DNA from: a virus
Taxonomy: Duplodnaviria > Heunggongvirae > Uroviricota > Caudoviricetes
IMG/VR virus record: IMGVR_UViG_2713896795_000003
Coordinates: 1-37,123 of that record
Length of the DNA: 37,123 nt
Direction: 5' to 3' (one strand)
Part shown: piece by piece, positions 3,731 to 19,170 of the stretch
How positions within the stretch are numbered: the stretch's first letter is position 1
Layout: every line of letters begins with the position of its first letter
Position numbers and translations under genes: made by a program
The notes under the pieces: generated by a model
Databases searched by the model: none
The model's input: the letters and a program-made list of their open reading frames with translations, nothing else
Told to the model about the DNA's origin: nothing

Positions 3731-3741
3731 ATTAATTCCTC

Positions 3742-4041
3742 TCAAATAAGTGGTTTGCTGCCTAATTTCATTTTCTGGCGACCAACACAAGTCACCCCCA
3801 TTTCACTGCGTGGCTTGCGGTAGTAAATACGGTTCTGTTTACGCTCGACTTCTTCTGCCTTCTTGCAGCGAAGGCTTCCGAGTGATGCTGCTTTATCTGC
3901 TCTGACGCAACCAGAGAGCTTTAGCGCAATTTTTCGCGCCAGTCGCTGCTCTTGCATTGCCTGTTCACGTTGAGCCTGTCTGCGTGCTCTGCGGCGATTT
4001 CTGGCGTTATCGTCAGCCAGATATGTAATGACTACTGTCAT
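3742..4041 (-). CDS. N: Antitermination protein N-like
   Basis: Arginine-rich motif NARNRRRARRQAQ near N-terminus; C-terminus ...VTCVGRQKMKLGSKPLI resembles lambda N ...ITCSGRQKIKGKSIPLI; GGAGG SD; sits downstream of nutL on the pL transcript. Confidence 0.75.
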   Translation of the reverse strand: MTVVITYLADDNARNRRRARRQAQREQAMQEQRLARKIALKLSGCVRADKAASLGSLRCKKAEEVERKQNRIYYRKPRSEMGVTCVGRQKMKLGSKPLI

Positions 4042-4354
4042 GTTGACCTCCGATGAAACAACTTTGGAAATTTTTTTATTACAAAGTGGTTTCCTTCCCC
4101 GCCAATTAGACGGGGATGGAAGAGCATTTATGAGCCTTCATGGACTCTGCTCGATCAGTTCTATTTAATTAATCTCTCAACTGAATGTAAGTATTCACAT
4201 AAATCCTCCTACCTCTTGTGCAGCTTTCTTGAATATGGTGGCGGCTGCATAACGCCTATGGAATTGACTTTGGCGGTGACGCGCCGGGTGCTTATCTTCC
4301 GGTTGCCGTCGTGCAGCTGCACTTCACGTCACCCCAAAGCCAACTACTCTTTGG

Positions 4355-4397
4355 TTCCCGCATTTCGGCGGGACAATCCCATCAATGTTAAAGAGCC
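4355..4397 (-). promoter_or_regulatory. nutL (boxA GCTCTTTAACA + boxB hairpin)
   Basis: Minus-strand reading gives GGCTCTTTAACA, 12-nt spacer, then hairpin TCCCGC-CGAAAT-GCGGGA; exact inverted copy of the element downstream of cro. Confidence 0.6.
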
Positions 4398-4436
4398 TGC
4401 CAATCTGTTCCGTTTGGCTTCCAGCGTCCTGCTGAT

Positions 4437-4510
4437 GGCTTAAATTTAAGATCTCTTTAATTAATGGTCAAGAGTATTTTTGAAGAAAACTTAAATTTTC
4501 TTTCGTAACT
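4437..4510. promoter_or_regulatory. pL promoter with OL operators
   Basis: Minus-strand -35 TTGACC (4466-4471) and -10 TTAAAT (4444-4449) with 16-nt spacer; 18-bp ATTTAAG-N4-CTTTAAT operator at 4444-4461 and weaker TTAAG-type repeats to 4510. Confidence 0.45.
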
Positions 4511-4533
4511 TAAGTTTGGCTTTGATTTTTAAA

Positions 4534-4562
4534 GGAAATAAAAAAAGGGGCGAATGCCCCTT
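4534..4562 (-). terminator. Intrinsic terminator downstream of repressor gene
   Basis: Minus-strand hairpin GGGGCattcGCCCC followed by TTTTTTTATTT, starting at the cI stop codon. Confidence 0.7.
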
Positions 4563-5211
4563 ATGGAAGGTTTGCTAGTTTTGCATCGACAACTACGCCG
4601 ATGATTTTGCAGTTTCCGTTGATCTCGATCATCGGATATTGTGGGTTAAGTGGTTTTAGAAACTTCCTGCCTGCATCAATAACTAACTTTTTGAAAGTTG
4701 CCTCGTTTTCTCCTTCGAGCTTTGCAACTACCAGTTTCCCGTTACGCGGCTCTACTTCAGGATCGACGAGTATTATCATTCCTTCAGGGATACTGAGACC
4801 GGCTGGAGCCGTCATTGAGTCTCCCTTCACGTCCAACCAAAACGAATCTTCTGAACAGTCTACGGTTGTATCGTACCAGTTATCTATTGCACGCTTATGA
4901 TATGGTTCTACAGCTTCCATCCAGCATCCTGCGCTCACCCAGCTAATCAGAGGGTATGACCCTCTTGGATCATGCCTACTGTGATAGGCAATGTTTGAAA
5001 GACTTTCCTCTCCTTTCATCAGATAGTCAGGGGAACACTTCAACGCATTAGCCAGGGCGAGAAGATTCTCTCCATTTGGCTCTGTCTCAGAGCGTTCCCA
5101 CTGAGATATGGCAACATTAGACACGCCGACCATCTTTCCAAGTGCGGCCTGCCTGATCTTGAGTTCTTTTCTCCGAGCGCGAATGCGCTCTCCCATCAAT
5201 TGAGTTTTCAT
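4561..5211 (-). CDS. c2: CI-type repressor (P22 c2-like; HTH + S24 LexA-like autocleavage domain)
   Basis: 216 aa; N-terminal HTH; C-terminal FWLDVKGDSMTAPAGL...ATFKKL...PLNPQYPMIEINGNCKIIGVV matches lambda CI / P22 C2 from memory; leaderless ATG abutting OR3. Confidence 0.9.
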   Translation of the reverse strand: MKTQLMGERIRARRKELKIRQAALGKMVGVSNVAISQWERSETEPNGENLLALANALKCSPDYLMKGEESLSNIAYHSRHDPRGSYPLISWVSAGCWMEAVEPYHKRAIDNWYDTTVDCSEDSFWLDVKGDSMTAPAGLSIPEGMIILVDPEVEPRNGKLVVAKLEGENEATFKKLVIDAGRKFLKPLNPQYPMIEINGNCKIIGVVVDAKLANLP

Positions 5212-5277
5212 AGTTAAGACATCTTAAATAAACTTGACTTAAGATTCCTTTAGTGGATAATTTAAGTGTTCTTTAAT
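5212..5277. promoter_or_regulatory. OR operators (three 18-bp sites) with pR and pRM
   Basis: Sites AGTTAAGACATCTTAAAT (5212-5229), ACTTAAGATTCCTTTAGT (5237-5254), ATTTAAGTGTTCTTTAAT (5260-5277); pR -35 TTGACT 5234-5239 and -10 ATAATT 5257-5262. Confidence 0.6.
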
Positions 5278-5291
5278 TTCGGAGCGAGTCT

Positions 5292-5477
5292 ATGTACAAG
5301 AAAGATGTTATCGACCACTTCGGAACCCAGCGTGCTGTAGCTAAAGCGTTAGGCATTAGCGACGCAGCAGTCTCTCAGTGGAAGGAAGTCATCCCAGAGA
5401 AAGACGCCTATCGACTGGAAGTCGTTACAGCTGGCGCCCTGAAGTATCAAGAAAGCGCTTACCGCAAAGCGGCATAA
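5292..5477 (+). CDS. cro: Cro repressor (P22-type, 61 aa)
   Basis: MYKKDVIDHFGTQRAVAKALGISDAAVSQWKE... recognised as P22-like Cro from memory; GGAG SD. Confidence 0.85.
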   Translation: MYKKDVIDHFGTQRAVAKALGISDAAVSQWKEVIPEKDAYRLEVVTAGALKYQESAYRKAA

Positions 5478-5483
5478 GCAAAT

Positions 5484-5529
5484 TGCTCTTTAACAGTCAT
5501 GGTCCTCATTCCCGCCGAAATGCGGGAAT
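5484..5529 (+). promoter_or_regulatory. nutR (boxA TGCTCTTTAACA + boxB hairpin)
   Basis: boxA 5484-5495; hairpin ATTCCCGC-cgaaat-GCGGGAAT 5508-5529, 12-nt spacing. Confidence 0.6.
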
Positions 5530-5534
5530 ACAAC

Positions 5535-5570
5535 GCGCATAAGTTGATGCGCATAACTTCTTATTTGTTA
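5535..5570 (+). terminator. Candidate tR1-like terminator
   Basis: Hairpin GCGCAT-aagttg-ATGCGC followed by interrupted T-rich tract; weak. Confidence 0.25.
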
Positions 5571-5610
5571 AGGAAATACTTACATATGGTTCGTGCAAAC
5601 AAACGCAACG
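5565..5610 (-). promoter_or_regulatory. pRE-like CII-activated promoter (TTGC-N6-TTGC)
   Basis: Minus strand TTGCGTTTGTTTGC (plus 5595-5608) overlapping cII start, as in lambda pRE. Confidence 0.45.
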
Positions 5611-5879
5611 AGGCTCTAAGAATCGAGAGTGCGTTGCTTAACAAAATCGCAATGCTTGGAACTGAGAAGACAGCGGAAGCTGTGGGAGTTGATAAGTCGC
5701 AGATCAGCAGGTGGAAGAGGGATTGGATTCCAAAGTTCTCAATGCTGCTTGCTGTTCTTGAATGGGGCGTCGTCGACGACGATATGGCTCGATTGGCACG
5801 ACAAGTTGCTTCGATTCTCACCAATAAAAAACGCCCGGCGGCAACCGAGCGTTCTGAACAAATCCAGATGGAATTCTGA
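5586..5879 (+). CDS. cII: CII transcriptional activator (lambda type, 97 aa)
   Basis: [47 protein letters not shown]... matches lambda CII from memory; the ORF-track start at 5499 is an extension through nutR. Confidence 0.9.
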
Positions 5880-5900
5880 GGTCATTACTGGATCAATCCA
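5824..5900 (-). ncRNA. oop: oop-like antisense RNA (placed by analogy with lambda)
   Basis: cII 3-prime end and the following ~30 bp resemble the lambda oop/pO region; minus-strand GC-rich hairpin followed by U-run near 5825-5850; coordinates approximate. Confidence 0.4.
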
Positions 5901-5911
5901 CAGGAGTCATT

Positions 5912-6058
5912 ATGACAAAACAACTCAGTCCTTACCAGGACAAAATTCACAAACACATACTACGTGATCGCTTCCTGTCCAGCTTCAAGCAGCCTGGTCG
6001 ATTCCGGGCTGAGTTGGAAAAAGTGAAGCTGATGCAGAAGGAGAAAGGTCATGAGTAA
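5912..6058 (+). CDS. Small hypothetical protein (48 aa)
   Basis: Hand-translated [21 protein letters not shown]...; AGGAG SD 7 nt before ATG; stop overlaps O-like gene start. Confidence 0.45.
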
Positions 6059-6911
6059 TCTTGCAACCGTAACACATTTAAGGCCTTCACAACGGCCTGT
6101 GGAGCGTCGTGTGGCAGAAGTTGAAGATGGTTATACCCGTCTTGCAAATGCCCTGTATGAAGAGCTTATCGGCGCAGATTTAACGAAAAATCAGAGCAAG
6201 GTTGCCCACGCCATATGCCGTAAAACATACGGCTACGGTAAAAAGATGGATCGCATTTCTGATAGTCAGTTAGCTCAAATTACCAGGCTGCCAAGACAGA
6301 AGGTAAACAAGGCCAAGAATGAGCTTATCGCGATGAAGGTTATCCTTCGCGAAGGCCAGCAAATCGGGCCTAACAAGAACATCGAAGAATGGCAAATCGA
6401 AGGGTGTCACTACTCTGGTGATAATGTCACTGCATTGGTGACAAAAAGTGTCACCAAAACGGTGACAGCGCTGTCACCAAAACAGGGACACACAAAAGAA
6501 ACTATTACAAAAGAAAAAAGAAATAATAAAAACACTATGTCCGAAAGTGTTCGGACGGAGTGTGAAAAATCATCTGACCGTCACGAAGAAACCGACAAGG
6601 CATTCGAGGAAATATTCTGGTGTGCAGGCATGCGGAAAGCCGGGAAGAAAAACGCGGCTTCGGCATTCAGAACACAGTTCAGGGAATGGCGTAAAACTAC
6701 CAGGGGTACGGCAAGCGAGTTTGCCACGATGCTGGCAGAAGACATCGCATGCAGGAATGGTAAGCAGTTCGGATTCGACAGGTTGTTACCATCGAGCTAC
6801 CTGAACGGTCAGCGCTGGAACGACGAGAAGCCAGAAACTATTCAACCACAATCCAAACCATCATCCGCAATCACCGTATCGAAAACTGGCTACGTGTTTT
6901 TCGACAGGTGA
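6051..6911 (+). CDS. Replication initiator, lambda O-like N-terminal domain
   Basis: N-terminal [36 protein letters not shown]...[13 protein letters not shown]...[11 protein letters not shown] resembles lambda O; iterons lie inside the gene; C-terminal half unlike lambda O. Confidence 0.8.
6405..6535. repeat. Replication origin: four TGTCAC(C)-N5/6-GGTGACA iterons plus AT-rich tract
   Basis: Repeats at 6405-6490 (e.g. TGTCACCAAAACGGTGACA) followed by ACAAAAGAAACTATTACAAAAGAAAAAAGAAATAATAAAAACAC, inside the O-like gene as in ori-lambda. Confidence 0.7.
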
Positions 6912-7018
6912 ACCATGAAATCAAAAATCAAATCGCTACTGGTCGCTGGTTATAACCACGGCTGGTTAAGTATTTCGTTTGTCGATTTCTGGTTTAAAAA
7001 TCTCAATCTGAGGGAATC

Positions 7019-8899
7019 ATGACGCCAAGTGAACTTAGCGACCTGCTTTGGGCGCAGGTTGACAGGGTGGCTCCGCACCTGTTGCCAAACGGCAAGAAAG
7101 AGGGGCATGAGTGGGTTGCCGGTAACGTCAACGGTGACAAGGGAAACAGCCTTAAGGTCAACCTTAGCGGCAAGAAAAAATGGGCTGATTTCGCTGAGGG
7201 AGACGGCGGTGACATGCTTGATTTGTGGATGGCATGTCGTGGAATTAACCTGCATCAGGCTATGCAGGAAGCGAAAGCCTTTCTCGGAATCAAGGATGAC
7301 GATCACCATTTCGATGCCAAACGTGAGAAGAAATTCTCCAGACCTGACCGCAAGAAAATCGCCCGCTACGTTACCAGAACAGAATCCCATCTTGAGTACC
7401 TGCAATCGCGTGGCATATCGCCAGAAGTCGTAAAGCGCTACGAGGTTGTCAGCGGCAAGGTGTGGAATGGAGAACGAGAACTTGATGCACTGGTGCTTCC
7501 GTACAAACGCGATGGTGAGTTGTTGCAGGTCAAGCGAATCAGCACTGAGCGCCCGGACGGGAAGAAAGTCATTATGGCAGAAGGTGATTGCGAACCTTGT
7601 CTGTTCGGATGGCAGGCTCTGGACGCTGGCGTGAGGGCGGTTGTACTTTGCGAAGGCGAAATTGATTGTATGAGCTATGCGCAATACGGCATCTCGGCGT
7701 TATCCGTGCCGTTTGGTGGCGGGAAAGGCGCTAAGCAACAGTGGATTGAGTTTGAGTATCACAACCTCGACAGGTTTGAGGAAATATTCATCTCGATGGA
7801 CGTTGATGATGTTGGTCGTGAAGCCGCAAGGGAAATCGCAAGCCGACTCGGTGAACATCGTTGCCGTCTTGTTACTCTGCCGTACAAAGACATCAACGAA
7901 TGCCTGATGAACGGTGTTACCGAGGATGAAATCTGGCAGTACATCGGCACGGCATCCTACTTCGATCCTGAAGAACTCTACAGCGCGCGAGAGTTTTACC
8001 AGGACACTATCAACGCTTTCTACGGCAAGCAGCAGTATCTGTTTAATCCACCGTGGGAATCTCTGGCAGATAAATTCCAGTTCCGTGAGGCCGAGTTGAC
8101 GCTGGTCAATGGTGTGAACGGTCACGGAAAAACGGAGGTTGTCGGGCATATGGCGCTTGAGGCAATGCGTCAGGGTGTGAAGACGTGCATCGCGTCACTT
8201 GAGCTGAAGCCAGGCATTCTCCTTAAGCGACTTACCCGTCAGGCGACGTGCTGCAAGATGCCGCCAGTGCTGGAAATTGACTCTGCATTTAAATTTTATG
8301 ACGAAAGACTTTGGGTGTTTGGCCTGACCGGAACGGCGAAAGCCGACAGGCTGATCGAAATATTCGACTACGCTCGCCGCCGATACGGCATCCAGTTATT
8401 CATCATCGACAGCCTGATGAAATGTGGCATAGGCGACGATGACTATAACGGGCAGAAGGCGTTTGTTGACTCGATTTGCGATTTCAAAAACAAAACAAAC
8501 TCCCACGTCATTCTCGTTACTCACTCGCGAAAAGGTGACAGCGAAGAAAAACCAACCGGGAAAATGGACGTAAAAGGCTCTGGAGCGATAACAGACCTGA
8601 CAGACAACCTTTTCATCATCTGGCGTAACAAGGCTCGCGAGAGAGCGTTACAGAGAGTTCAGAGTGGTGAAAAGATGTCAGAGAAGGACGAACAGCTACT
8701 GGCATCTCCGGCATCTGTTTTGATGCTTGAAAAGCAACGTAACGGCGAAGGTTGGGAAGGTGGTGTCCCGTTGTTCCTTGACGAGCAATCGCACCAGTTC
8801 CTGCAACTTGAATCAGGATCGCCATATAGCTACATCGCCAATATGCCGAAATCGGAATATGACGAGGCGTGGCGACAGGAAAACGTGACGGAGTATTAA
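7019..8899 (+). CDS. Bifunctional DNA primase/helicase (Toprim + DnaB-like ATPase)
   Basis: 626 aa; Toprim-like VVLCEGEIDCMSYAQYG and DVDDVGREAA; Walker A GVNGHGKT; Walker B LFIIDSL. Confidence 0.8.
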   Translation: MTPSELSDLLWAQVDRVAPHLLPNGKKEGHEWVAGNVNGDKGNSLKVNLSGKKKWADFAEGDGGDMLDLWMACRGINLHQAMQEAKAFLGIKDDDHHFDAKREKKFSRPDRKKIARYVTRTESHLEYLQSRGISPEVVKRYEVVSGKVWNGERELDALVLPYKRDGELLQVKRISTERPDGKKVIMAEGDCEPCLFGWQALDAGVRAVVLCEGEIDCMSYAQYGISALSVPFGGGKGAKQQWIEFEYHNLDRFEEIFISMDVDDVGREAAREIASRLGEHRCRLVTLPYKDINECLMNGVTEDEIWQYIGTASYFDPEELYSAREFYQDTINAFYGKQQYLFNPPWESLADKFQFREAELTLVNGVNGHGKTEVVGHMALEAMRQGVKTCIASLELKPGILLKRLTRQATCCKMPPVLEIDSAFKFYDERLWVFGLTGTAKADRLIEIFDYARRRYGIQLFIIDSLMKCGIGDDDYNGQKAFVDSICDFKNKTNSHVILVTHSRKGDSEEKPTGKMDVKGSGAITDLTDNLFIIWRNKARERALQRVQSGEKMSEKDEQLLASPASVLMLEKQRNGEGWEGGVPLFLDEQSHQFLQLESGSPYSYIANMPKSEYDEAWRQENVTEY

Positions 8900-8976
8900 A
8901 TGACCATCTACATCACTGAGTTAATAACAGGCTTGCTGGTAATCGCAGGCCTTTTTATTTGGGGGAGAGGGAAGTC

Positions 8977-9417
8977 ATGAAAAAACTAACCTTTGAAATT
9001 CGATCTCCAGCACATCAGCAAAACGCTATTCACGCAGTACAGCAAATCCTTCCAGACCCAACCAAACCAATCGTAGTAACCATTCAGCAACGCAACCGCA
9101 GCTTAGACCAGAATCGAAAGCTTTGGGCTTGCCTTGGTGACGTCTCTCGTCAGGTTGAATGGCATGGTCGCTGGCTGGATGCAGAAAGCTGGAAGTGTGT
9201 GTTTACCGCAGCATTAAAGCAGCAGGACGTTGTTCCTAACCTTGCCGGGAATGGCTTTGTGGTAATAGGCCAGTCAACCAGCAGGATGCGTGTAAGCGAA
9301 TTCGCGGAGCTATTAGAGCTTATACAGGCATTCGGTACAGAACATGGCGTTAAGTGGTCAGACGAAGCGCGACTGGCTCTGGAGTGGAAAGCAAGATGGG
9401 GAGACAGGGCGGCATGA
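8977..9417 (+). CDS. ninB: NinB recombination protein
   Basis: [37 protein letters not shown]... matches lambda NinB from memory; start at 8977 (ORF-track frame begins 18 nt earlier). Confidence 0.85.
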
Positions 9418-9590
9418 GGCGACAGCGACGAAGTTTCACCGACATCATCTGCGAAAACTGCAAATACCTTCCAACGAAGCGCTCCAGAAATAAATGCAAG
9501 CCAATCCCAAAAGAATCTGACGTAAAAACCTTCAACTACACGGCTCACCTGTGGGATATCCGGTGGCTAAGACATCGTGCGAGGAAATGA
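9414..9590 (+). CDS. ninE: NinE
   Basis: [27 protein letters not shown]... ; ATGA overlap with ninB stop. Confidence 0.75.
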
Positions 9591-9994
9591 CAATGCTTTT
9601 AATTCAACCTGGATTTGGACTTAGCATCAAAAAAGGCCACATGTTTGGCGAGAAAGAGTCACAACGAAAAATGGTGTCTATCCGGTTGCCATTTATCAGT
9701 ATTTATTGGCTAAACAGGGAGGCAACAAATTATTGGTATACATGCGCCAGAGCAGCATTTAACGACCCTGACTGGTTTGTGAAAAACCACCACGCAGTTC
9801 GTCAGGCAAAGAGAAAGGCCAACATGACATACATGAAGGCGTATCAAAAAGCATGGAAAGAACACCGCGATCGATACCAGCAAGACATGGAAAAGCTTGA
9901 ATCAGAAAACATGGAATTAAGACGAAAGCTTGGTGAAGCAAAACGAGACATTGATGCTTACAAGCGACTTTTTAATGGTGAAAGCCATGCTTAG
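9587..9994 (+). CDS. Hypothetical nin-region protein (135 aa)
   Basis: ATG overlaps ninE stop (ATGA); coiled-coil-like basic C-terminus; family not recognised. Confidence 0.55.
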
Positions 9995-10163
9995 CCCATC
10001 CCAATCCCTTCAATACCAGAAAGAAAGCGTCGAGCGGGCTTTAACGTGCGCTAACTGCGGTCAGAAGCTGCATGTGCTGGAAGTTCACGTGTGCTCCGAT
10101 TGCTGCGCAGAACTGATGAGCGATCCGAATAGCTCAATGTACGAGGAAGAAGACGATGAGTGA
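9987..10163 (+). CDS. ninF: NinF
   Basis: [36 protein letters not shown]... matches lambda NinF from memory. Confidence 0.75.
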   Translation: MLSPSQSLQYQKESVERALTCANCGQKLHVLEVHVCSDCCAELMSDPNSSMYEEEDDE

Positions 10164-10368
10164 TTACCTGAAATGGTATCTCTGCCACCGCTGGTTAATT
10201 AAGTATGCTGTAAAAGACTGGATGACAGCGGATGCCAACAAGCTTAAGCAAAGAAAAGACTATTACTACGCCAGAATGAAGGAAAACTACTGCTCAATTC
10301 GCACTCGCATATTTATTAAAAAAGACCTTCAGTCAATTCTTCAATTGCGAGGGAAGGTAAATGGCTAA
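10156..10368 (+). CDS. Hypothetical small basic protein (70 aa)
   Basis: ATG with GAGGAAG SD, overlaps ninF stop. Confidence 0.5.
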   Translation: MSDYLKWYLCHRWLIKYAVKDWMTADANKLKQRKDYYYARMKENYCSIRTRIFIKKDLQSILQLRGKVNG

Positions 10369-10651
10369 CCTACGCAAAGAAGCGCGCGGCAGAGAATGCC
10401 AGGTACGTATTTACGGTGTATGCAATGGCAATCCTGAAACTACAGTTCTGGCACATTACCGGATGGCTGGAATTTGCGGAACGGGAATGAAGCCTGACGA
10501 CCTGATCGGTGCATGGGCTTGTAGCGCGTGTCACGATGAAATCGACCGACGCACCCATAATCTCGACAACAAAGACGCCAGACTTTACCACCTCGAAGGC
10601 GTGATCAGGACGCAGGCGATACTGCTGAAGGAGGGGAAGATTAAGCCATGA
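10361..10651 (+). CDS. ybcO: YbcO-like protein (DUF1364, putative nuclease)
   Basis: MANLRKEARGRECQVRIYGVCNGNPETTVLAHYR...CSACHDEIDRR resembles DLP12 YbcO from memory. Confidence 0.65.
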   Translation: MANLRKEARGRECQVRIYGVCNGNPETTVLAHYRMAGICGTGMKPDDLIGAWACSACHDEIDRRTHNLDNKDARLYHLEGVIRTQAILLKEGKIKP

Positions 10652-11010
10652 ACGAATATCAGTTTGTGCTTCCATACCCGCCGTCGGTGAATACCTACTG
10701 GCGAAGACGGGGAAGTCAATACTACATCAGCGATAAAGGCCAGAAATACCGAAAAGACGTTCAGCAAATCATCCGCCAACTTAAGTTAGACATTTTCACC
10801 AAATCACGACTCCGCATCAAAGTCATCGCAGACGTTCCAGACTCCCGCCGCCGCGACCTCGACAACATCCTGAAAGGTTTACTCGACTCACTTATCCACG
10901 CCGGATTTGCGGAAGACGACGAGCAATTCGATGACATTCGCGTAATTCGTGGTGTGAAAGTACCGGGCGGACGGCTTGGAATAAAAATCACCGAACTGGA
11001 GAACGTATGA
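10648..11010 (+). CDS. rusA: RusA Holliday-junction resolvase
   Basis: 120 aa with RRRDLDN and GGRLGIKITE motifs typical of RusA; strong GGAGG SD. Confidence 0.8.
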   Translation: MNEYQFVLPYPPSVNTYWRRRGSQYYISDKGQKYRKDVQQIIRQLKLDIFTKSRLRIKVIADVPDSRRRDLDNILKGLLDSLIHAGFAEDDEQFDDIRVIRGVKVPGGRLGIKITELENV

Positions 11011-11195
11011 ACGCCACAATTCAAACGATACCAGAGCTTCTTATCCAGACACGAGGCAATCAGACCGAAGTGGCGAGGATGCTTTCCTGCGCAAGAGGAA
11101 CAGTGCTCAAGTACAACCGAGACAGCAAAGGCGAGCGTCACGTAATAGTTAACGGCGTCCTGATGGTCAAACAGGGCAAGAGGGGAAGACGATGA
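11007..11195 (+). CDS. ninH: NinH-like protein
   Basis: ...GNQTEVARMLSCARGTVLKY... resembles lambda NinH from memory. Confidence 0.65.
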   Translation: MNATIQTIPELLIQTRGNQTEVARMLSCARGTVLKYNRDSKGERHVIVNGVLMVKQGKRGRR

Positions 11196-11815
11196 GACTC
11201 GAAAGCGTAGCTAAATTTCATTCGCCAAAAAGCCCGATGATGAGTGACTCACCACGGGCTACGGCTTCTGACTCTCTTTCCGGTACTGATGTGATGGCTG
11301 CTATGGGGATGGCGCAATCACAAGCCGGATTCGGAATGGCTGCATTCTGCGGTAAGCATGAACTCAGCCAGAACGACAAACAAAAGGCTATCAACTATCT
11401 GATGCAATTTGCACACAAGGTATCGGGGAAATACCGTGGTGTGGCAAAGCTCGAAGGAAATACTAAGGCAAAGGTACTGCAAGTGCTCGCAACATTCGCT
11501 TATGCGGATTATTGCCGTAGTGCCGCGACGCCGGGCGCAAGATGCAGAGATTGTCACGGTACAGGCCGTGCGGTTGATATAGCAAAAACAGAGCAGTGGG
11601 GGAGAGTTGTTGAGAAAGAGTGCGGAAGATGCAAAGGCGTCGGCTATTCAAGGATGCCAGCAAGTGCCGCATATCGCGCTGTAACGATGCTAATCCCAAA
11701 CCTTACTCAACCCACCTGGTCACGCACTGTTAAGCCGCTGTATGACGCTCTGGTGGTGCAATGCCACAAAGAAGAGTCAATCGCAGACAACATTTTGAAT
11801 GCGGTCACACGTTAG
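11192..11815 (+). CDS. Q: Late-gene antiterminator Q (lambda type)
   Basis: 207 aa; MRLESVAKFHSPKSPMMSDSPRATASDSLSG... recognised as lambda Q from memory. Confidence 0.9.
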   Translation: MRLESVAKFHSPKSPMMSDSPRATASDSLSGTDVMAAMGMAQSQAGFGMAAFCGKHELSQNDKQKAINYLMQFAHKVSGKYRGVAKLEGNTKAKVLQVLATFAYADYCRSAATPGARCRDCHGTGRAVDIAKTEQWGRVVEKECGRCKGVGYSRMPASAAYRAVTMLIPNLTQPTWSRTVKPLYDALVVQCHKEESIADNILNAVTR

Positions 11816-11857
11816 CAGCATGATTGCCACGGATGGCAACATATTAACGGCATGATA

Positions 11858-11893
11858 TTGACTTTTTGAATAAAGTTGGGTAAATTTGACCAA
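11858..11893 (+). promoter_or_regulatory. Late promoter pR-prime with qut region
   Basis: -35 TTGACT (11858-11863), 17-nt spacer, -10 TAAATT (11881-11886); sits between Q and the lysis genes as in lambda. Confidence 0.65.
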
Positions 11894-11921
11894 ACGATGG
11901 ATAAATGCACTCGTTAAATAA

Positions 11922-11957
11922 AGCCCTGAGTTAATAGCTCGGGGCTTTTTGCGTTTT
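11922..11957 (+). terminator. Candidate tR-prime terminator
   Basis: Hairpin AGCCCTGAG-ttaatag-CTCGGGGCT (one G-U pair) followed by TTTTGCGTTTT, ~35-60 nt downstream of the pR-prime start. Confidence 0.5.
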
Positions 11958-12248
11958 AAGCACGGCCTTTCTGAAAGCACATCAAACCAAATACCAGACA
12001 GACAAAAATAATCACCTTATCCGCTGTGGCTACGGTGCGGTGTGCTTTGCATAAAAGAAAACCAGCTCAATGGCTGGCTTCGTGAAAGCGGGTGGCAAGA
12101 AGTTGCGCTAACAACCTCCTGCCGTTTTGCCCGTGCATATCGGTCACGAACAAATCTGATTACTAAACACAGTAGCCTGGATTTGTTCTATCAGTAATCG
12201 ACCTTATTCCTAATTAAATAGAGCAAATCCCCTTATTGGGGGTAAGAC

Positions 12249-12572
12249 ATGAAGATGCCAGAAAAACATGACCTGTTAGCCGCCATTCTCGCGGCAAAGG
12301 AACAAGGCATCGGGGCAATCCTTGCGTTTGCAATGGCGTACCTTCGCGGCAGATATAATGGCGGTGCGTTTACAAAAACAGTAATCGACGCAACGATGTG
12401 CGCCATTATCGCCTGGTTCATTCGTGACCTTCTCGACTTCGCCGGACTAAGTAGCAATCTCGCTTATATAACGAGCGTGTTCATCGGCTACATCGGTACT
12501 GACTCGATTGGTTCGCTTATCAAACGCTTCGCTGCTAAAAAAGCCGGAGTAGAAGATGGTGGAAATCAATAA
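12249..12572 (+). CDS. S: Holin/antiholin S (dual start MKM)
   Basis: [34 protein letters not shown]... matches lambda S from memory. Confidence 0.9.
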
Positions 12573-13032
12573 TCAACGTAAGGCGTTCCTCGATATGCTG
12601 GCGTGGTCAGAGGGAACTGATAACGGACGTCAGAAAACCAGAAATCATGGTTATGACGTCATTGTTGGTGGAGAGCTATTCACTGATTACTCCGATCACC
12701 CTCGCAAACTTGTCACGCTAAACCCAAAACTCAAATCAACAGCAGCCGGGCGCTATCAGCTTCTTTCCCGTTGGTGGGATGCCTATCGTAAGCAGCTTGG
12801 CTTGAAAGATTTCTCTCCGAAAAGCCAGGACGCAGTTGCACTGCAGCAGATTAAAGAGCGTGGCGCTTTACCTATGATTGATCGCGGTGATATCCGTCAG
12901 GCAATCGACCGTTGCAGCAATATCTGGGCTTCACTGCCGGGCGCTGGTTATGGTCAGTTCGAGCATAAGGCTGACAGCCTGATTGCAAAATTCAAAGAGG
13001 CTGGCGGAACGGTCAGAGAGATTGAGGTATGA
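12556..13032 (+). CDS. R: Endolysin R (lytic transglycosylase)
   Basis: [39 protein letters not shown]... matches lambda R from memory. Confidence 0.9.
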
Positions 13033-13496
13033 GCAGAGTAACCGCGATTATCTCCGCTCTGGTTATCTGCATCATCGTCTGCCTGTCATGGGCTGTTAAT
13101 CATTACCGTGATAACGCCATGACCTACAAAGAGCAGCTCGATAAAAAAGTCAGTGAGATGAAGCAGGCGACTGCCACCATTACTGACATGCAGCGGCGCC
13201 AGCGTACTGCTGATGCACTTGATGCTAAATACACGAAGGAGTTAGCTGATGCGAAAGCTGAAAATGATGCTCTTCGGCGCAAGCTTGATAATGGTGGCAG
13301 GGTGCTCGTCAAAGGAAAATGCCCTGTGCCATCCTCAGCCGAAACCTCCAGCACCTCCGGCATGGGCAATGATGCCACCGTCGAACTCTCTCCAGTTGCT
13401 GGACGAAACGTTCTCGGTATTCGGGACGGAATCATCAGCGACCAAACAGCACTGAGAACGCTTCAGGAATACATCAGGACGCAATGCCTTCGATGA
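13029..13496 (+). CDS. Rz: i-spanin Rz
   Basis: N-terminal [32 protein letters not shown] like lambda Rz; C-terminal half divergent. Confidence 0.8.
13249..13455 (+). CDS. Rz1: o-spanin Rz1 (lipoprotein) embedded in Rz in the +1 frame
   Basis: [22 protein letters not shown]... with lipobox VAGC and proline-rich stretch; AAGGAG SD 8 nt upstream. Confidence 0.7.
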
Positions 13497-13669
13497 TAGC
13501 GATAATTTTACTCATCATCCTTCACATCTGGCTCTGTAGACAGGGTGGTGATCACTTCTGGAGTGAATCCAGATTAAACATCTCATTGCTGATGCTTGAT
13601 ATTGAGCATCTGGCGCGCGGTAAGGGGCTGCGTTGAGATAAGAGCCAGTAATTACAAACACCAGGATTT

Positions 13670-13695
13670 AGCCTCGCATTCGCGGGGCTTTTTTA
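13670..13695 (+). terminator. Candidate intrinsic terminator between Rz and KilA-N gene
   Basis: Hairpin AGCCTCGC-attc-GCGGGGCT followed by TTTTTT. Confidence 0.4.
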
Positions 13696-13840
13696 CATCT
13701 GCAGTAAACCGCGCATCGCAGCGCGTAACAATCCCGAGTCTTTCAGAAAGCTGAGCCTGAGAATTGCCGTATATGGTGGCGACCATCTCGGGGCGGCTTT
13801 TCTGTGCGAACAGGCTCATCTTTCTAAAAGGTAAGACGCT

Positions 13841-14362
13841 ATGAATATCGTTCCACTAAATTACAAAGGCGAACCTATCCGCTTCAATACTGATGGCTGG
13901 ATTAATGCCACTGATATTGCAAAACGTTTCGGGAAGCGTCTGGATCACTGGTTGTCCAACGCTGAAACTCTCGAATACGTTAGAGCTCTGGATGAGGTTT
14001 ATTCAGGTGAACCATCGAAAATTCTACATACCCGTGATTCCGGGTATGTAAAAACAAGCAAGGCACGAAAGGACAGGGGTGGCGGAACATGGCTGCATCC
14101 AAAGTTATCAGTTGCCTTTGCAAGATGGTGCGATCCGAAATTCTCCGTATGGTGCGACCTGCACATTGATAGTCTGCTTCGCGGTGAACTGACTGAGCAG
14201 CAGAAATATGAGCAAGCATGTCGCATTCGCGATGACCGGAAATCAAAAGCCAGCAATGGGGCAAGAGAGATGGCTCGCTGGCGATGGGATAAGCCGGTTA
14301 TTGAAGCAAATGTCGAGTACTGGCGCGAGCAACTGCAGTTGACTCTCGATATTGCGTGCTGA
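13841..14362 (+). CDS. KilA-N domain protein
   Basis: N-terminal NYKGEPIRFNTDGWINATDIAKRFGKRLDHWL resembles KilA-N/antirepressor-type DNA-binding domain; position after the lysis cassette is typical. Confidence 0.5.
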   Translation: MNIVPLNYKGEPIRFNTDGWINATDIAKRFGKRLDHWLSNAETLEYVRALDEVYSGEPSKILHTRDSGYVKTSKARKDRGGGTWLHPKLSVAFARWCDPKFSVWCDLHIDSLLRGELTEQQKYEQACRIRDDRKSKASNGAREMARWRWDKPVIEANVEYWREQLQLTLDIAC

Positions 14363-14720
14363 TGGCAAACGCAAAACTGCGTTATCGGAAAAATCAAAGC
14401 ATTACGAGAACTGAGCAACGGCTATCCATTACAAAGCCCATCAACGGGTGGGCTTGATAATGAAACCGGAATTTATTCTAGGTAACCAGTTACGGCAGTA
14501 CCACGAAGCAACCCAAGCCAGTAAGTGGGGGAAATAACACTGGCAGCCACTGAAAGATGAACCTCCAGCCTTATGGCAAAAAAGATTCTTTGTGGTGGCG
14601 GACTGATGGAAAGACATCGGTTATTGCAGAGGCCATTCAATGAATGGTCTCGACAATGGCTTATACCCTACACGGGATAACTTAACTGATATCCCTTTTA
14701 ACGGATAAACGGAGCCAACA

Positions 14721-14927
14721 ATGGCAGAGATTATTCCCATGACTGAAGAACAGAAATTCCAGTTAGAGATTTACAAGCTGGTCATGAACCAGAACGCAGC
14801 CGCAGAAGAAGCATTTCAATTCATTGGCACTGACGAACTGAAGCTTGAGCTATTCAAAATTCACTTCCAGTCAGGCGGCGCTAATTCAGATATCACGACC
14901 CGCACTATCGAAGCGGTACGTAAATAG
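14721..14927 (+). CDS. Hypothetical small protein (68 aa)
   Basis: ATG with GGAG SD; upstream of terminase small subunit. Confidence 0.5.
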   Translation: MAEIIPMTEEQKFQLEIYKLVMNQNAAAEEAFQFIGTDELKLELFKIHFQSGGANSDITTRTIEAVRK

Positions 14928-15042
14928 AAGGAAGCGTTAGACCTGTTCACTACCGGAGCGTAAACATGGCAACTCAAGGTTTCGACAACCCATCCAAATT
15001 CCGTGATGAATGGGATAAGCAAGCAGAAGGGAAATAATCAAT

Positions 15043-15468
15043 ATGGCGACTGAGAAAAAGAATGTCGGTCGCCCTTCGGATTACCTGCCGGAGGTGGCTG
15101 ATGATATCTGTGCGCTTCTTGCCTCCGGGGAAAGTCTGGTTAAGGTTTGCAAGCGCCCCGGCATGCCAGCAAAGGCTACTGTATTTCGCTGGCTGTCAGA
15201 GCATGACGAATTTAGAGACAAGTACGCGAAGGCAACTGAGGCGCGAGCTGATTCTATTTTCGAAGAGATATTCGAAATTGCTGACACTGCGATTCCAGAT
15301 GCCGCCGAGGTGGCAAAGGCAAGACTTCGCGTTGATACCCGCAAATGGGCGCTGGCCAGAATGAATCCCCGTAAGTATGGCGACAAGGTAACTAATGAGC
15401 TTGTCGGCAAAGACGGCGGCGCAATCCAGATTGAAACATCACCGATGAGCACTCTATTCGGAAAATGA
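15043..15468 (+). CDS. Terminase small subunit (Sf6 gp1-like, HTH)
   Basis: MATEKKNVGRPSDYLPEVADDICALLASGESLVKVCKRPGMPAKATVFRWL... resembles Sf6-type small terminase from memory; stop overlaps large-subunit start. Confidence 0.75.
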   Translation: MATEKKNVGRPSDYLPEVADDICALLASGESLVKVCKRPGMPAKATVFRWLSEHDEFRDKYAKATEARADSIFEEIFEIADTAIPDAAEVAKARLRVDTRKWALARMNPRKYGDKVTNELVGKDGGAIQIETSPMSTLFGK

Positions 15469-16880
15469 CCTCGATTAATCCTATCTTTGAACCGTTCATT
15501 GAGGCGCATCGCTACAAAGTCGCCAAAGGCGGTCGAGGTAGCGGCAAATCATGGGCAATTGCGAGGCTGCTTGTTGAAGCGGCGCGTCGTCAGCCAGTGC
15601 GTATTCTCTGCGCTCGTGAACTGCAAAACAGTATCAGCGATTCGGTAATCCGGTTGCTTGAAGATACCATCGAGCGTGAAGGGTATTCGGCTGAGTTTGA
15701 AATTCAGCGTTCAATGATTCGTCATCTCGGAACGAATGCTGAATTCATGTTCTACGGCATCAAAAACAACCCGACGAAGATTAAATCGCTCGAAGGCATT
15801 GATATCTGCTGGGTGGAAGAAGCGGAAGCGGTAACGAAGGAATCATGGGATATCCTGATACCAACCATCCGCAAGCCGTTTTCCGAAATATGGGTGAGCT
15901 TTAACCCGAAAAACATCCTCGACGATACCTATCAGAGATTCGTTGTAAATCCTCCCGATGATATTTGCCTGCTGACGGTGAACTACACCGACAACCCGCA
16001 CTTTCCTGAAGTTCTCCGTCTGGAGATGGAAGAGTGCAAACGCAGAAATCCGACATTGTATCGTCACATCTGGCTTGGTGAGCCAGTAAGCGCAAGTGAT
16101 ATGGCAATCATCAAACGTGAATGGCTTGAAGCCGCAACCGATGCGCACAAGAAACTCGGATGGAAAGCGAAGGGCGCGGTTGTCTCTGCGCATGACCCGT
16201 CAGATACAGGACCGGATGCTAAAGGTTACGCATCGCGTCACGGTTCGGTAGTTAAGCGCATTGCCGAAGGTCTGCTGATGGACATCAACGAGGGTGCTGA
16301 CTGGGCTACTTCGCTGGCGATTGAAGACGGCGCTGACCATTACCTGTGGGATGGTGATGGTGTTGGTGCTGGGCTACGCAGACAGACAACGGAAGCGTTC
16401 TCCGGCAAGAAAATCACCGCCACGATGTTCAAGGGTAGCGAATCGCCATTCGATGAAGATGCACCATATCAGGCCGGAGCATGGGCCGATGAAGTCGTAC
16501 AGGGCGACAACGTTCGCACTATTGGCGATGTGTTCCGCAATAAGCGAGCGCAATTCTATTACGCGCTGGCTGACAGGCTGTATCTGACATATCGGGCGGT
16601 TGTTCACGGTGAGTATGCAGACCCCGACGACATGCTGAGTTTCGACAAAGAAGCGATAGGCGAGAAGATGCTGGAGAAGCTGTTTGCAGAACTGACGCAG
16701 ATTCAGCGCAAATTCAATAACAACGGGAAGCTGGAGCTAATGACTAAGGTCGAAATGAAGCAGAAGCTCGGTATTCCATCTCCTAACCTGGCTGATGCGC
16801 TGATGATGTGTATGCATTGCCCAGAGTCGGCTGCGCAACCCGACTATTCCAGTTACTCAATTCCTTGTGGTGTAGGTTGA
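15465..16880 (+). CDS. Terminase large subunit
   Basis: 471 aa; Walker A KGGRGSGKS; nuclease-domain acidic motifs; resembles Sf6 gp2 from memory. Confidence 0.9.
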   Translation: MTSINPIFEPFIEAHRYKVAKGGRGSGKSWAIARLLVEAARRQPVRILCARELQNSISDSVIRLLEDTIEREGYSAEFEIQRSMIRHLGTNAEFMFYGIKNNPTKIKSLEGIDICWVEEAEAVTKESWDILIPTIRKPFSEIWVSFNPKNILDDTYQRFVVNPPDDICLLTVNYTDNPHFPEVLRLEMEECKRRNPTLYRHIWLGEPVSASDMAIIKREWLEAATDAHKKLGWKAKGAVVSAHDPSDTGPDAKGYASRHGSVVKRIAEGLLMDINEGADWATSLAIEDGADHYLWDGDGVGAGLRRQTTEAFSGKKITATMFKGSESPFDEDAPYQAGAWADEVVQGDNVRTIGDVFRNKRAQFYYALADRLYLTYRAVVHGEYADPDDMLSFDKEAIGEKMLEKLFAELTQIQRKFNNNGKLELMTKVEMKQKLGIPSPNLADALMMCMHCPESAAQPDYSSYSIPCGVG

Positions 16881-16881
16881 T

Positions 16882-19080
16882 ATGGCAGAAAAAAAGATGA
16901 CTGACTGGCATCGCAAGGTGCTGTGCAACTTTGATAATGCCTGGTCAGCAACGCAGGATATGCGTGAGCAGATTATTGAGGCTCAACGTTTCGTCCGGGT
17001 ATCCGGCGCACAGTGGGAAGGCAGCACAAACGCTGGTTACTCATTTGATGAAGGCAGGTTTGAGCATTACCCGCGCTTTGAACTGAATAAGATTGCCCGT
17101 GAATGTGATCGCATCATTGGCGAGTATCGACAGAATCGCATAAGCGTTAAATTCAGGCCGAAGGACGATAAGGCATCGGAAGCGTTAGCCGAAAAGATGA
17201 ACGGCAAATTCCGCGCTGACTATCAGGAAACATCCGGTGGCGAAGCGTGTGATAACGCATTTGATGATGCTGTAACGGGCGGATTCGGTTGTTTCCGCAT
17301 GTGTGCCGATTACGAAGATGAAATGGATCCGAGTAACGAGCAGCGACGCATCAGTCTTCTTCCTGTTTACGACCCAGCGACATGCGTCTTCTTCGATCAG
17401 GACAGCAAGCAATATGACCGCTCTGATGCTATGTGGGCTATGGAAATGTTCTCCATGACGCCTAAAGCGTTCGAGGCTGAATACCCTGATTCCATCGCTG
17501 CAAGTCTTTCTCGTGATGACACTGGCACTCAATATGACTGGTCAACTCCTGATGCTATCTATGTTGGTCGCTACTATGAAGTCCGCATAGAGAAGGTGAA
17601 GCTCACGGCATGGCGTAACCCTGTTAGCGGAGAAACGGCAATCTATGATGAAGAGCAAATCAAAGATATTGTTGACGAGCTAACCGATGGTGCATTCGAG
17701 CTGATCGGTGAGAGGACAGTGAAGAAACGCAGAGTTTATTGCGGTCTTCTGTCTGGCGCTGAATGGCTGGAAGAACCGAAGCGTATTCCGGGTGAACATA
17801 TTCCTCTCATCCCGGTATATGGGCGTCGCTCATTTGTTGATAATCAGGAGCGAATCGAAGGCCACGCAGCAAAAGCGATGGATGCGCAGCGTCTTGAGAA
17901 CCTGATGGTTTCCATGATTGCAGATAACGCTACTCAGGCTGGCGGTGATGGCATTCCTATCGTGGATGTTGATTTCATTCCCGGTCCATTAATGAATCAC
18001 TGGGCAGAGAGGAATAAGAAAAGACCTGCAGTTCTTCCCATGACCAGCAAGAAGGACAAAAACGGAACGGTCATTTCAGAGGCTCAGGTTGCTGGCTGGA
18101 CACCTCCGACACAAATGCCTCCTGCTCTTGCCGGGCTATTGCAGTACACCGGAACGGCTATTCAGCAAATTACAGGTGCGTCGCAGCTTGAGAACATGCC
18201 GAGCAACGTCGCTACCGATACCGTTGATAGCATCTTTAATCGGATGGACACGCAGTCCTATATCTACATGGACAACATGGCTAAATCCATGCGCCGTGCT
18301 GGCGTCGTGTGGCTTTCTATGGCTCGTGAAGTCTATGGCAGCGATACGCCAATGCGCATCGTTAATGAGGATGGCAGCGATGACGTGGCGCTGATGACTG
18401 GTGAAGTGGTTGACCGTCAGACAGGGCAGGTTATCGCGCTTAACGACCTTTCGCAGGGTAACTATGAAGTGACTGTCGATGTCGGTCAGTCGTTCGCTAC
18501 TCGCCGTGATGCAACGGTTAAGTCGTTACTTTCCATGCTGGCACTTATCCCACCAGGAACGCCGAAGCACGACCTTGTATCGTCGATGATTCTCGAAAAT
18601 ATGGACGGCGAAGGGATGGACGACCTTAAAGAATACAACCGCAATCAGTTGCTTCTGTCTGGCGTTATCAAGCCGAGAACGCCTGAAGAACAGCAGATGG
18701 TTGAGCAGGCGAAACAACAACAGGCCAGTCAGCCGGATCCGGCTATGGTTGCAGCGCAAGGTCAGCTTCTGGCTGGTCAGGCTGAATTGCAGAAAGCGCA
18801 GAACGAACAGGCAGCCATTCAGGTTAAAGCATTCCAGGCACAGACTGATGCTCAGGTTGCTGCGGCAAATGTTGTGAAAATCCTCGCATCTGCCGATAGT
18901 CAGCAGAAATCTGATATCCGCGAGGCTCTGAAACTTCTCGGACAGTTCCAGCAACAGCAAGGAGACAATGCCCGTGCTGATGCAGAGCTTGTCCTGAAGA
19001 GTCAGGCGCAGGGCCATGCGCAGCGCATGGACATCAACAGCATCCTGCAAAAATCAACTCAGCAACAACCACAGCAGTAA
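16882..19080 (+). CDS. Portal protein (P22 gp1-like)
   Basis: 732 aa; C-terminal QDPAMVAAQGQLLAGQAELQKAQNEQ... and ARADAELVLKSQAQGHAQRMDINSILQ resemble the P22 portal barrel region. Confidence 0.9.
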   Translation: MAEKKMTDWHRKVLCNFDNAWSATQDMREQIIEAQRFVRVSGAQWEGSTNAGYSFDEGRFEHYPRFELNKIARECDRIIGEYRQNRISVKFRPKDDKASEALAEKMNGKFRADYQETSGGEACDNAFDDAVTGGFGCFRMCADYEDEMDPSNEQRRISLLPVYDPATCVFFDQDSKQYDRSDAMWAMEMFSMTPKAFEAEYPDSIAASLSRDDTGTQYDWSTPDAIYVGRYYEVRIEKVKLTAWRNPVSGETAIYDEEQIKDIVDELTDGAFELIGERTVKKRRVYCGLLSGAEWLEEPKRIPGEHIPLIPVYGRRSFVDNQERIEGHAAKAMDAQRLENLMVSMIADNATQAGGDGIPIVDVDFIPGPLMNHWAERNKKRPAVLPMTSKKDKNGTVISEAQVAGWTPPTQMPPALAGLLQYTGTAIQQITGASQLENMPSNVATDTVDSIFNRMDTQSYIYMDNMAKSMRRAGVVWLSMAREVYGSDTPMRIVNEDGSDDVALMTGEVVDRQTGQVIALNDLSQGNYEVTVDVGQSFATRRDATVKSLLSMLALIPPGTPKHDLVSSMILENMDGEGMDDLKEYNRNQLLLSGVIKPRTPEEQQMVEQAKQQQASQPDPAMVAAQGQLLAGQAELQKAQNEQAAIQVKAFQAQTDAQVAAANVVKILASADSQQKSDIREALKLLGQFQQQQGDNARADAELVLKSQAQGHAQRMDINSILQKSTQQQPQQ

Positions 19081-19170
19081 TTAACCCATAACGTGCAATG
19101 GCTGTCTTTATGAGGCCTGGCACCCTATTGCCTTCCGATGGGCTGAACATCGAGTAAACAGGGGTAACAA

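Follow-up and report, generated by a model that had tools for sequence, protein, structure and literature searches.

Module mosaicism and conserved boundary blocks in the early, lysis and terminase regions of a P22-like lambdoid prophage

We analysed positions 3742-16880 of IMG/VR virus record IMGVR_UViG_2713896795_000003, a stretch of 37,123 nucleotides (nt) that is called the window below. The window is a P22-like (Lederbergvirus-type) prophage in attB-lambda of an E. coli-type chromosome. The lambdoid gene order is complete (N, repressor, cro, cII, replication, nin, Q, lysis, terminase and virion genes) and collinear with the annotated records of lambda, P22, Sf6, HK620 and CUS-3. The virion genes follow the P22 order terS, terL, portal, scaffold, coat, gp4, gp10, gp26, gp14, gp7, gp20, gp16. 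The segment 15037-24286 is collinear with Sf101, Kapi1, CUS-3 and vB_EcoP-720R6 (ON470605; 720R6 below) at 94-96% nt identity, and the closest records are classified as Lederbergvirus. The tailspike gene (31950-34808) encodes a P22 head-binding domain (Pfam Head_binding, E = 2e-65). At the prophage end, attR (35112-35321, 210 nt) is 87.6% identical to the P arm of lambda attP, contains the exact lambda core GCTTTTTTATACTAA at 35303-35317, and is followed by the host gene ybhB (PEBP family, 35408-35884). Beyond ybhB lies a gene of the TnpB/IS605-OrfB type (376 amino acids (aa), 35993-37123), where the flank match of 720R6 stops. Thus a P22-like prophage occupies attB-lambda, with an insertion-sequence-type gene in the host flank.

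Identity was computed in sliding windows of 150 nt, at first against lambda, P22, Sf6 and HK620; CUS-3 (CP000711), Sf101 (NC_027398), mEp043 (NC_019706), 720R6 and Kapi1 were added later, and the map rests on these nine genomes. The region was also compared by megablast with 50,697 phage records, and with 5,426 complete E. coli genomes. Domains were assigned with Pfam and RNA families with Rfam at gathering thresholds; protein identities to the references were computed per gene.

The region is a mosaic of about twenty segments, each with a different closest phage, to which it is 92-100% identical. Module-level mosaicism with sharp junctions had been proposed from the letters of the sequence before any database search. 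The comparison with the first four phages bears this out, as it gave a patchwork with mappable breakpoints in which the nearest relatives of the segments differ and similarity is lost abruptly. No known phage resembles the region uniformly. Although 606 phage records match it, none of the 50,697 covers 80% or more. The best, 720R6, covers 62% at 98.2% identity, followed by Kapi1, phiv205-1, CUS-3, mEp043, Sf101 and HK620. Some match is present in 5,119 of the 5,426 E. coli genomes, and coverage of at least 80% in only one (81%). The flanks of the region show the same absence of a uniform relative. The module combination as such was found neither in the phage collection nor in the E. coli genomes.

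The joints are sharp. At 94 strong alignment ends, mean ungapped identity drops from 88% over the inner 40 nt to 27% over the outer 40 nt, and similarity falls to the random level within a few nucleotides. Clustering of 114 alignment ends gave 39 breakpoints. The nearest gene start or stop is a median of 27 nt away, compared with 117 nt when positions are drawn at random, and 44% of the breakpoints, rather than the 11% expected by chance, have a gene end within 20 nt. Such proximity was reached in none of 10,000 permutations (P < 1e-4). Intragenic breaks were observed in N, ninF, Rz and terS. Three breakpoints, 5887-5919, 8900 and 13098-13145, coincide with the Sf6 boundary sequences bsq5, bsq6 and bsq7. 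In the nin region, the partners have 0-15 base pairs (bp) in common at the joints 9406-9417, 9587-9595, 9987, 10158-10163, 10360 and 11182-11196.

For each joint there is at least one independent phage record or complete genome that runs across it with high identity: 720R6 (5569-8965), Sf101 (5887-9417), CUS-3 (8965-9595), the E. coli genome NZ_OZ121081 (9414-10165 and 14620-19880), mEp043 (10021-13144), Kapi1 (12078-13693) and E. coli 81EVA (13400-14800).

The joint between cII and the replication module falls in a 33-bp block at 5887-5919. It maps exactly onto positions 27827-27859 of Sf6, annotated in the GenBank record as 'bsq5; boundary sequence'. In the alignment of the window with nine phages it is a short conserved block with flanks that are unrelated on at least one side, which defines a boundary sequence. 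The block contains the 5' end of oop RNA, the -10 element of its promoter pO, the ribosome-binding site GGAG, and the initial 8 nt of the open reading frame (ORF) that follows. Its sequence (T)ACTGGATCAATCCACAGGAGTMATTATGAC is common to lambda, P22, Sf6, HK620, Sf101, mEp043 and 720R6, the P22 copy ending in ATGCC. In P22, Sf6, HK620, Sf101, mEp043 and 720R6 it has another cII or c1 3' end on the left, another first replication gene on the right, or both. The block is absent from CUS-3 and Kapi1, which diverge directly after the cII stop codon at 5875.

Of the 40 positions of 5880-5919, a stretch that ends in GGAGTCATTATGACAAA, 38 are the same in window and lambda; beyond ATGACAAA the two are unrelated. 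The start codon of lambda O (38686-38688) maps to 5912-5914. The sequence-only reading held that the small ORF at 5912 reuses a lambda O-like initiation context before diverging, through a recombination joint exactly at its start. The lambda O-like start followed by divergence is indeed seen, with 96.9% nt identity over 5569-5919 and no relation thereafter. The reuse in this genome is not: the ORF is a conserved gene of the DUF2740 family, the first of the replication module, and the block before it is pan-lambdoid. The DUF2740 protein is 100% identical to HK620 hkaW, Sf101 gp43, mEp043 gp53 and the 720R6 protein, and 85% identical to P22 orf48. Nor does the joint lie demonstrably at the start codon, as it can be placed only within 5887-5919, in a block that ends 8 nt into the ORF. 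Since the pairing of this cII with DUF2740 is already present in 720R6 and in at least 13 IMG/VR loci, it is old, widespread and not particular to the window.

Transcription of OOP RNA in lambda begins at base 38,675. The pO -10 element ATTATG lies 8-13 nt to the right (38683-38688) and includes the O start codon, oop overlaps the 3' end of cII by 52 nt, and pO activity needs sequence well into O (PMC5869508). By homology, position 5901 on the minus strand corresponds to the 5' end of oop in the window, and 5909-5914 to the -10 element, where ATTATG reads CATAAT on the minus strand; the annotated oop promoter of P22 maps to 5909-5937. The sequence thus has all parts of a pO-oop unit: a -10 element over the start codon, a candidate transcript of about 77 nt overlapping cII, and a terminator within cII. 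In position, the terminator hairpin in the lambda-type cII 3' end, the start of oop and the -10 element all correspond to the pO-oop-tO unit of lambda. The candidate -35 element, TGGTAA by our own reading, lies in the DUF2740 gene, whereas that of lambda, TTGAGT, lies in O. Rfam at gathering thresholds gave no oop or nut match in the window. A consensus promoter scan did not call pO, as the hexamers are below its thresholds, and the putative pO is assigned by homology to lambda and the P22 annotation. Expression of oop from pO may occur in this prophage.

Across the -10 element the minus strand reads TGTCATAAT, which we take to resemble an extended -10 element (TGn followed by the hexamer). 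An extended element would explain why conservation continues 5-8 nt into the following ORF. The ORF start codon overlaps the -10 element of the oop promoter, and thus the block sequence is the same 8 nt into the ORF, be it lambda O or DUF2740.

The flanks of this block are reassorted. A scan of IMG/VR for a 29-mer with three degenerate positions found at least 120 contigs, at least 115 of which entered the comparison; with lambda, 720R6 and the window added, at least 116 loci with 200 nt on both sides were analysed. The left flanks carry two main types of the cII 3' end, and the right flanks lambda O, DUF2740 or a small gene similar to gene 42 of Sf6. The second cII allele is followed by lambda O in at least 26 loci, by DUF2740 in at least 16, and by the Sf6 gene-42-like gene in at least 19; for the lambda-type cII the respective numbers are at least 30, 13 and 5. 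All six combinations persist after removal of identical junctions (87 unique sequences among the loci listed). Single-nucleotide polymorphisms (SNPs) within the block are A..C or T..A at 5895/5899 and C or A at 5908. Among the loci listed, every one of the four possible combinations is found, both between these SNPs and the left flank type and between the SNPs themselves, the pattern that repeated crossovers within the block would give. The haplotype of the window (lambda-type cII, A..C, C, DUF2740) is common to at least seven loci, including the window itself.

The features of the region are collected in Table 1.

Table 1. Segments, genes and sites of the region 3742-16880, with closest relatives and supporting matches
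Feature	Positions	Strand	Closest relative or supporting match
N, P22-type OL-c2-OR-cro, cII	3741-5875		CUS-3, 98.9% nt
N-like antiterminator gene, CUS-3 type	3742-4041	-	99% protein to CUS-3; weak Pfam N_peptide match
P22-type immC: OL, c2, OR/PRM/PR, cro	4444-5497		E. coli (CUS-3) version
c2 repressor	4561-5211	-	Protein 92% to P22, 100% to CUS-3
OR/PRM/PR	5212-5291		92/96 nt identical to P22 OR
cro	5292-5477	+	Protein 95% to P22, 100% to CUS-3
Lambda-type cII module (cII 5586-5879)	5569-5879	+	cII protein 99% to lambda
pRE CII box	5595-5608		TTGCGTTTGTTTGC match, homologous lambda position
oop terminator hairpin in cII (predicted)	5855-5828, T-run to 5822	-	
Pan-lambdoid boundary block, 33 bp	5887-5919		Sf6 bsq5, exact
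DUF2740 gene, O-like initiator, Toprim primase/helicase, ninB	5887-9417		Sf101 and mEp043, 98.6% nt
DUF2740 small gene	5912-6058	+	Pfam DUF2740, E = 9e-29
Replication module, Sf101/mEp043/720R6 type	6051-8899	+	Pfam Phage_rep_O, Toprim_2, DnaB_C
O-like initiator	6051-6911	+	Pfam Phage_rep_O
Toprim primase/DnaB-like helicase fusion	7019-8899	+	Pfam Toprim_2, DnaB_C
ninA/tR2 boundary block	8900-8965	+	Start of Sf6 bsq6; P22/HK620 tR2 sites map to 8900-8960
ninA/tR2 and lambda-type ninB (8977-9417)	8900-9417	+	96.1% nt to lambda; ninB protein 98%
ninE	9414-9590	+	Segment 9406-9595, 98.9% nt to Sf101
ninX-slot gene	9587-9994	+	ECP1/H-19B/VT1-Sakai type; 100% to ECP1, 98-99% to Stx1 phages and H-19B
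ninF, orf70, hkbD, rusA, ninH	9987-11196		720R6, 98.6% nt
ninF, P22/720R6 type	9987-10163	+	Protein 96% to P22, 85% to lambda
orf70	10156-10368	+	720R6/mEp043 type
hkbD (DUF1364), rusA, ninH cassette	10360-11196	+	HK620/HK97 type
Lambda-type Q (11192-11815), pR'/qut region	11182-11915	+	96.3% nt, Q protein 100% to lambda
paQ CII box	11479-11492	-	
tR' region	11915-12078		Sf101 and mEp043 only, 97% nt
Lambda-type S (12249-12572), R (12556-13032), 5' Rz	12078-13145	+	95.3% nt to lambda
3' Rz and Rz1, HK620/Kapi1 type	13145-13461	+	91-97% nt, against 54-61% for others
orf50 and flanks	13461-13845		CUS-3 and Sf101, 97.9% nt
KilA-N domain gene	13841-14362	+	Pfam KilA-N, E = 3e-24; both flanks spanned in E. 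coli genomes
DUF2560 gene	14485-14970		All P22-like references, 95-99% nt
terS, terL, Sf6/HK620 type	15037-16880		87.5% nt overall
Sf6-type TerS, TerL	15043-15468, 15465-16880	+	Pfam Sf6_terminase, E = 2e-44

The repressor, cro and operators had been assigned to the P22 immC type, which agrees with the protein and operator comparisons (Table 1; OL is identical to that of P22 in 136 of 169 aligned columns). Relative to P22, the OR region has four substitutions and c2 differs by 8%. The immunity region is not simply that of P22, as its nt identity is 77-95% to P22 and 99-100% to CUS-3. The N-like protein is 98% identical to that of HK620 over 65% of its length. This match is limited to the N-terminal two-thirds, which indicates an intragenic break near 3850 (alignment ends 3820-3850). 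Compared with HK620, there is a 206-bp insertion at 4057-4262 in the leader between nutL/pL and N, both sides of which abut HK620 position 7660. It is also present in CUS-3 and in 134 of the 5,426 E. coli genomes, mostly as a single copy. A small mobile element was considered here and rejected, both for this copy number and for want of convincing terminal repeats.

An in-frame ATG lies upstream of cII at 5499 (frame 5499-5879), and CUS-3 annotates this longer form of 126 aa. The 97-aa product is likely, because the lambda homology begins at 5569 and the lambda cII start maps to 5586. Boxes TTGCN6TTGC are not in excess of chance overall (5 against 3.7 expected), and only the two at homologous lambda positions are meaningful. 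The primase/helicase fusion has no match among the lambda and P22 proteins. Three 19-nt palindromic iterons (TGTCAC..GTGACA, spacing 23-24 nt) were observed at 6425-6490 within the O-like gene. They are origin-like, and their position is that expected of a lambdoid replication origin.

The 720R6 match ends at 8965 and the lambda match begins at 8900, within the ninA/tR2 block. Lambda-type assignments of cII, ninB, Q, S and R proved sound (protein identities 99, 98, 100, 99 and 99%, respectively). Those of ninE and ninF did not: the ninE protein is about equally near all references, with 93% to lambda and 95% to P22 and Sf6, and ninF is closer to P22 than to lambda, the 5' end of its alignment also being of the P22/720R6 type. 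The hkbD-rusA-ninH cassette is 97-98.6% identical at the nt level to HK620, CUS-3, 720R6, Kapi1 and mEp043, and the 720R6 and CUS-3 matches stop at its end, 11196. Downstream, the pR' promoter of P22 maps to 11858-11886. No tRNA genes were found downstream of Q, unlike in Sf6, Kapi1 and 720R6.

The lambda-type lysis segment ends at Sf6 bsq7. The Rz protein is 90-94% identical to those of HK620 and Kapi1 and 53-60% identical to those of lambda, Sf6, CUS-3 and Sf101. With a lambda-type 5' part and an HK620/Kapi1-type 3' part, Rz is an intragenic mosaic. The KilA-N gene and its flank (13840-14490) are 98.6% identical at the nt level to Salmonella P22-like phages (SPN3UB, SE1 and others). The neighbouring segments are of E. 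coli/Shigella types, which points to a recent cross-genus exchange. The fragments 9588-9990 and 13840-14490, which match none of the nine references, were considered as possible new sequence; this was rejected, as they match ECP1, the Stx1 phages and H-19B, and the Salmonella phages, respectively.

The terminases are of the Sf6 type, as the sequence-only reading had it (protein identity to Sf6 90% for TerS and 100% over 96% of the length for TerL). At the nt level the first 200 or so nt are 78% identical to the Sf6/HK620 type, and most of the rest 93-99%. Near the 3' end of terL the value is 79%, where the CUS-3-type references still have 99%. The start of terS (15043-15250) is about 78% identical to Sf6, HK620, Sf101 and Kapi1, and the remainder 96-98% identical to the same phages. 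For the terS portion of the query, no phage record is closer than 86%. The alignment with an E. coli prophage (NZ_OZ121081), over 14620-19880, continues through terS, with 96% identity for the whole alignment rather than for the 5' third of terS alone. A new packaging specificity due to the diverged 5' third is unlikely in view of this alignment; the diverged start may be a variant of the N-terminal region of Sf6-type TerS.

The virion genes were called P22-like, which is correct for gene order only. Portal, scaffold and coat are not close to gp1, gp8 and gp5 of P22: protein identity is 35% for portal and 29% for coat, and the scaffold has no match in P22. In the segment 16882-22008 they are of the CUS-3 type, with 95-99% protein identity (portal 97%, coat 95%). 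The segment 22008-26042, through gp10, gp26, gp14, gp7 and the start of gp20, is 94% identical to Sf6 at the nt level. Thus there is a further mosaic joint within the virion cluster, from CUS-3 type to Sf6 type, at 22008.

Downstream, a sar antisense RNA was found at 30654-30720 on the minus strand (RF00262, 76.6 bits), the sole Rfam match in the window. The RNA indicates a P22-type immI (ant) region; nt identity to CUS-3 is 94-96% over 29997-31708. The tailspike has an endosialidase-chaperone (Peptidase_S74) C-terminal region. The tailspike body has no nt match in the nine references. The G+C content of the tailspike gene is 38-41%, compared with about 50% in the rest of the prophage.

CUS-3, a K1-specific P22-like prophage of E. 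coli RS218, is 98.9% identical to the window over 3741-5875 and resembles it in hkbD-rusA-ninH, S, R, TerL and the portal/scaffold/coat type (95-99% protein identity). It differs in its O/DnaB-type replication module, roi in the nin region, 21-type Q, the Rz 3' end, the gene in the KilA-N slot, the TerS N-terminus and the integration site. Sf101 and mEp043 share the segment 5887-9417 (98.6% nt) and lambda-type Q, S and R, and differ in the immunity region and in having P22/Sf6-type cII. Sf101 is also similar in the terminase and the CUS-3-type head genes, but has dam, ninG and ninI where the window has orf70-hkbD-rusA. mEp043 is a siphovirus with virion genes unrelated to those of the window. 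720R6 shares lambda-type cII with DUF2740/O/primase-helicase (5569-8965), the ninF-ninH block, and integration by ybhB/bio. It differs in the immunity region (cI 37% protein identity), in extra genes between helicase and ninB, in 21-type Q with tRNAs, in the Rz 3' end, and in Rha in place of KilA-N.

We conclude, with a probability of about 0.92, that the early-right, nin, lysis and terminase regions form a natural mosaic of a P22-like lambdoid prophage, built by recombination in a shared gene pool. Assembly by recombination over evolutionary time explains why each functional cassette has its own closest relative. The data show the segment map, the abruptness of the joints, where they lie with respect to genes, the conserved block and its reassorted flanks; the recombination mechanism and the expression of oop/pO in this prophage are inferred. 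Two classes of joints can be distinguished. Joints of the first class lie in short blocks conserved in all partners through shared regulatory signals, namely the pO/oop/Shine-Dalgarno block (5887-5919), the ninA/tR2 terminator (8900-8965) and the site within Rz (13098-13145). The 33-66 bp of homology in these blocks could allow a homologous crossover, by phage Red/RecT/Erf or host RecA, to swap unrelated flanks. Three large swaps may have arisen in this way: immunity/cII against replication, replication against nin, and Rz 5' against Rz 3'. These three are most simply explained by homologous crossover within a conserved block of regulatory sequence. The second class, joints of the nin region with 0-15 bp in common at overlapping stop and start codons, is consistent with rare non-homologous or microhomology-mediated joins, of which selection retained those with intact genes.

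A stronger version makes the block 5887-5919 a hotspot 'linker', in which most exchanges between immunity/cII and replication occurred by homologous crossover within about 30 bp. We put this forward tentatively, at a little less than even odds. The shuffled SNP haplotypes and the presence of all flank combinations among the loci listed are compatible with it. If this holds, the joint would speak for the boundary-sequence model rather than for purely random illegitimate recombination.

The best surviving alternative is that all joints, including that at 5887-5919, arose by random non-homologous recombination with selection for intact genes and signals, the block having no role in recombination. 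This is said to be the model of Hendrix and Juhala. It accommodates the nin-region joints, most of which have 0-15 bp in common and lie on overlapping stop and start codons, and the intragenic breaks in N, ninF, Rz and terS. Conservation of the block is also expected on this model, as pO/oop and the ribosome-binding site are functional. On the other hand, the three largest swaps coincide with blocks of 33-66 bp common to both partners, and the SNP haplotypes of the 29-mer are shuffled relative to both flanks. We therefore consider random joining throughout to be unlikely.

Several points weigh against crossover within conserved blocks, or limit the data behind it. Firstly, conservation of the block for its function alone would also put breakpoints there, and sequence comparison cannot decide the pathway behind a given joint. 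Secondly, A at 5908 never occurs with a lambda-O right flank among the loci listed, which lends no support to crossovers at 5908-5919. Thirdly, the leading T of the scan pattern favours the two cII types and excludes P22-type c1 ends, and many of the contigs are related prophages, so the observed frequencies are not population estimates. Finally, denser reference sampling than nine genomes would shift some breakpoints by a few nucleotides.

An assembly artefact, in which reads of several lambdoid prophages of one host collapsed into a chimeric contig, is conceivable in principle, as the matching E. coli genomes contain 2 matching places in the median and 12 at most. However, all joints recur in independent isolate phages or complete genomes, at least one for each joint, the lambdoid map is uninterrupted and complete with intact ORFs, and the terminus of the prophage is a proper attR that has the lambda core and adjoins host ybhB. 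As every joint is independently spanned, a chimera is highly improbable and not a serious option. Vertical descent without exchange, with very different substitution rates among genes, might be read from immC, where 77-95% nt and 92-95% protein identity to P22 resemble ordinary module divergence, but it is refuted by the drop of identity to the random level within a few nucleotides, by unrelated families that different phages have in neighbouring slots (such as Toprim primase-helicase against lambda P or DnaB-type helicase, and lambda-type against 21-type Q), and by segments with different nearest relatives at 97-100% identity.

The natural mosaic built by recombination is in line with what is known of these phages. 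The boundary sequences in the Sf6 and CUS-3 records are the same blocks as the breaks of the window, which differs only in the combination of flanks. Their annotation reportedly comes from the work of Clark, Casjens and co-workers on HK620, Sf6 and CUS-3. Pervasive mosaicism of lambdoid and P22-like early regions and lambda-type Q in P22-like phages have been described (PMC2629481), and the procapsid gene types of P22-like phages are distinct and rarely exchanged (PMC2629481 and references therein). Mosaicism is thus the normal, long-described architecture of lambdoid prophages, and the joint near 5912 was already annotated as a boundary sequence. The window adds one more combination of modules, nothing different in kind. 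The module map has little import beyond annotation, where it helps to predict immunity, packaging and host range: its modules are P22-type immunity, lambda-type cII, Q, S, R and attR, a Toprim primase-helicase, an Sf6-type terminase and a CUS-3-type head. It is also a clean worked example of homology breaks that coincide with boundary blocks for which the Sf6 and CUS-3 records already have annotations.

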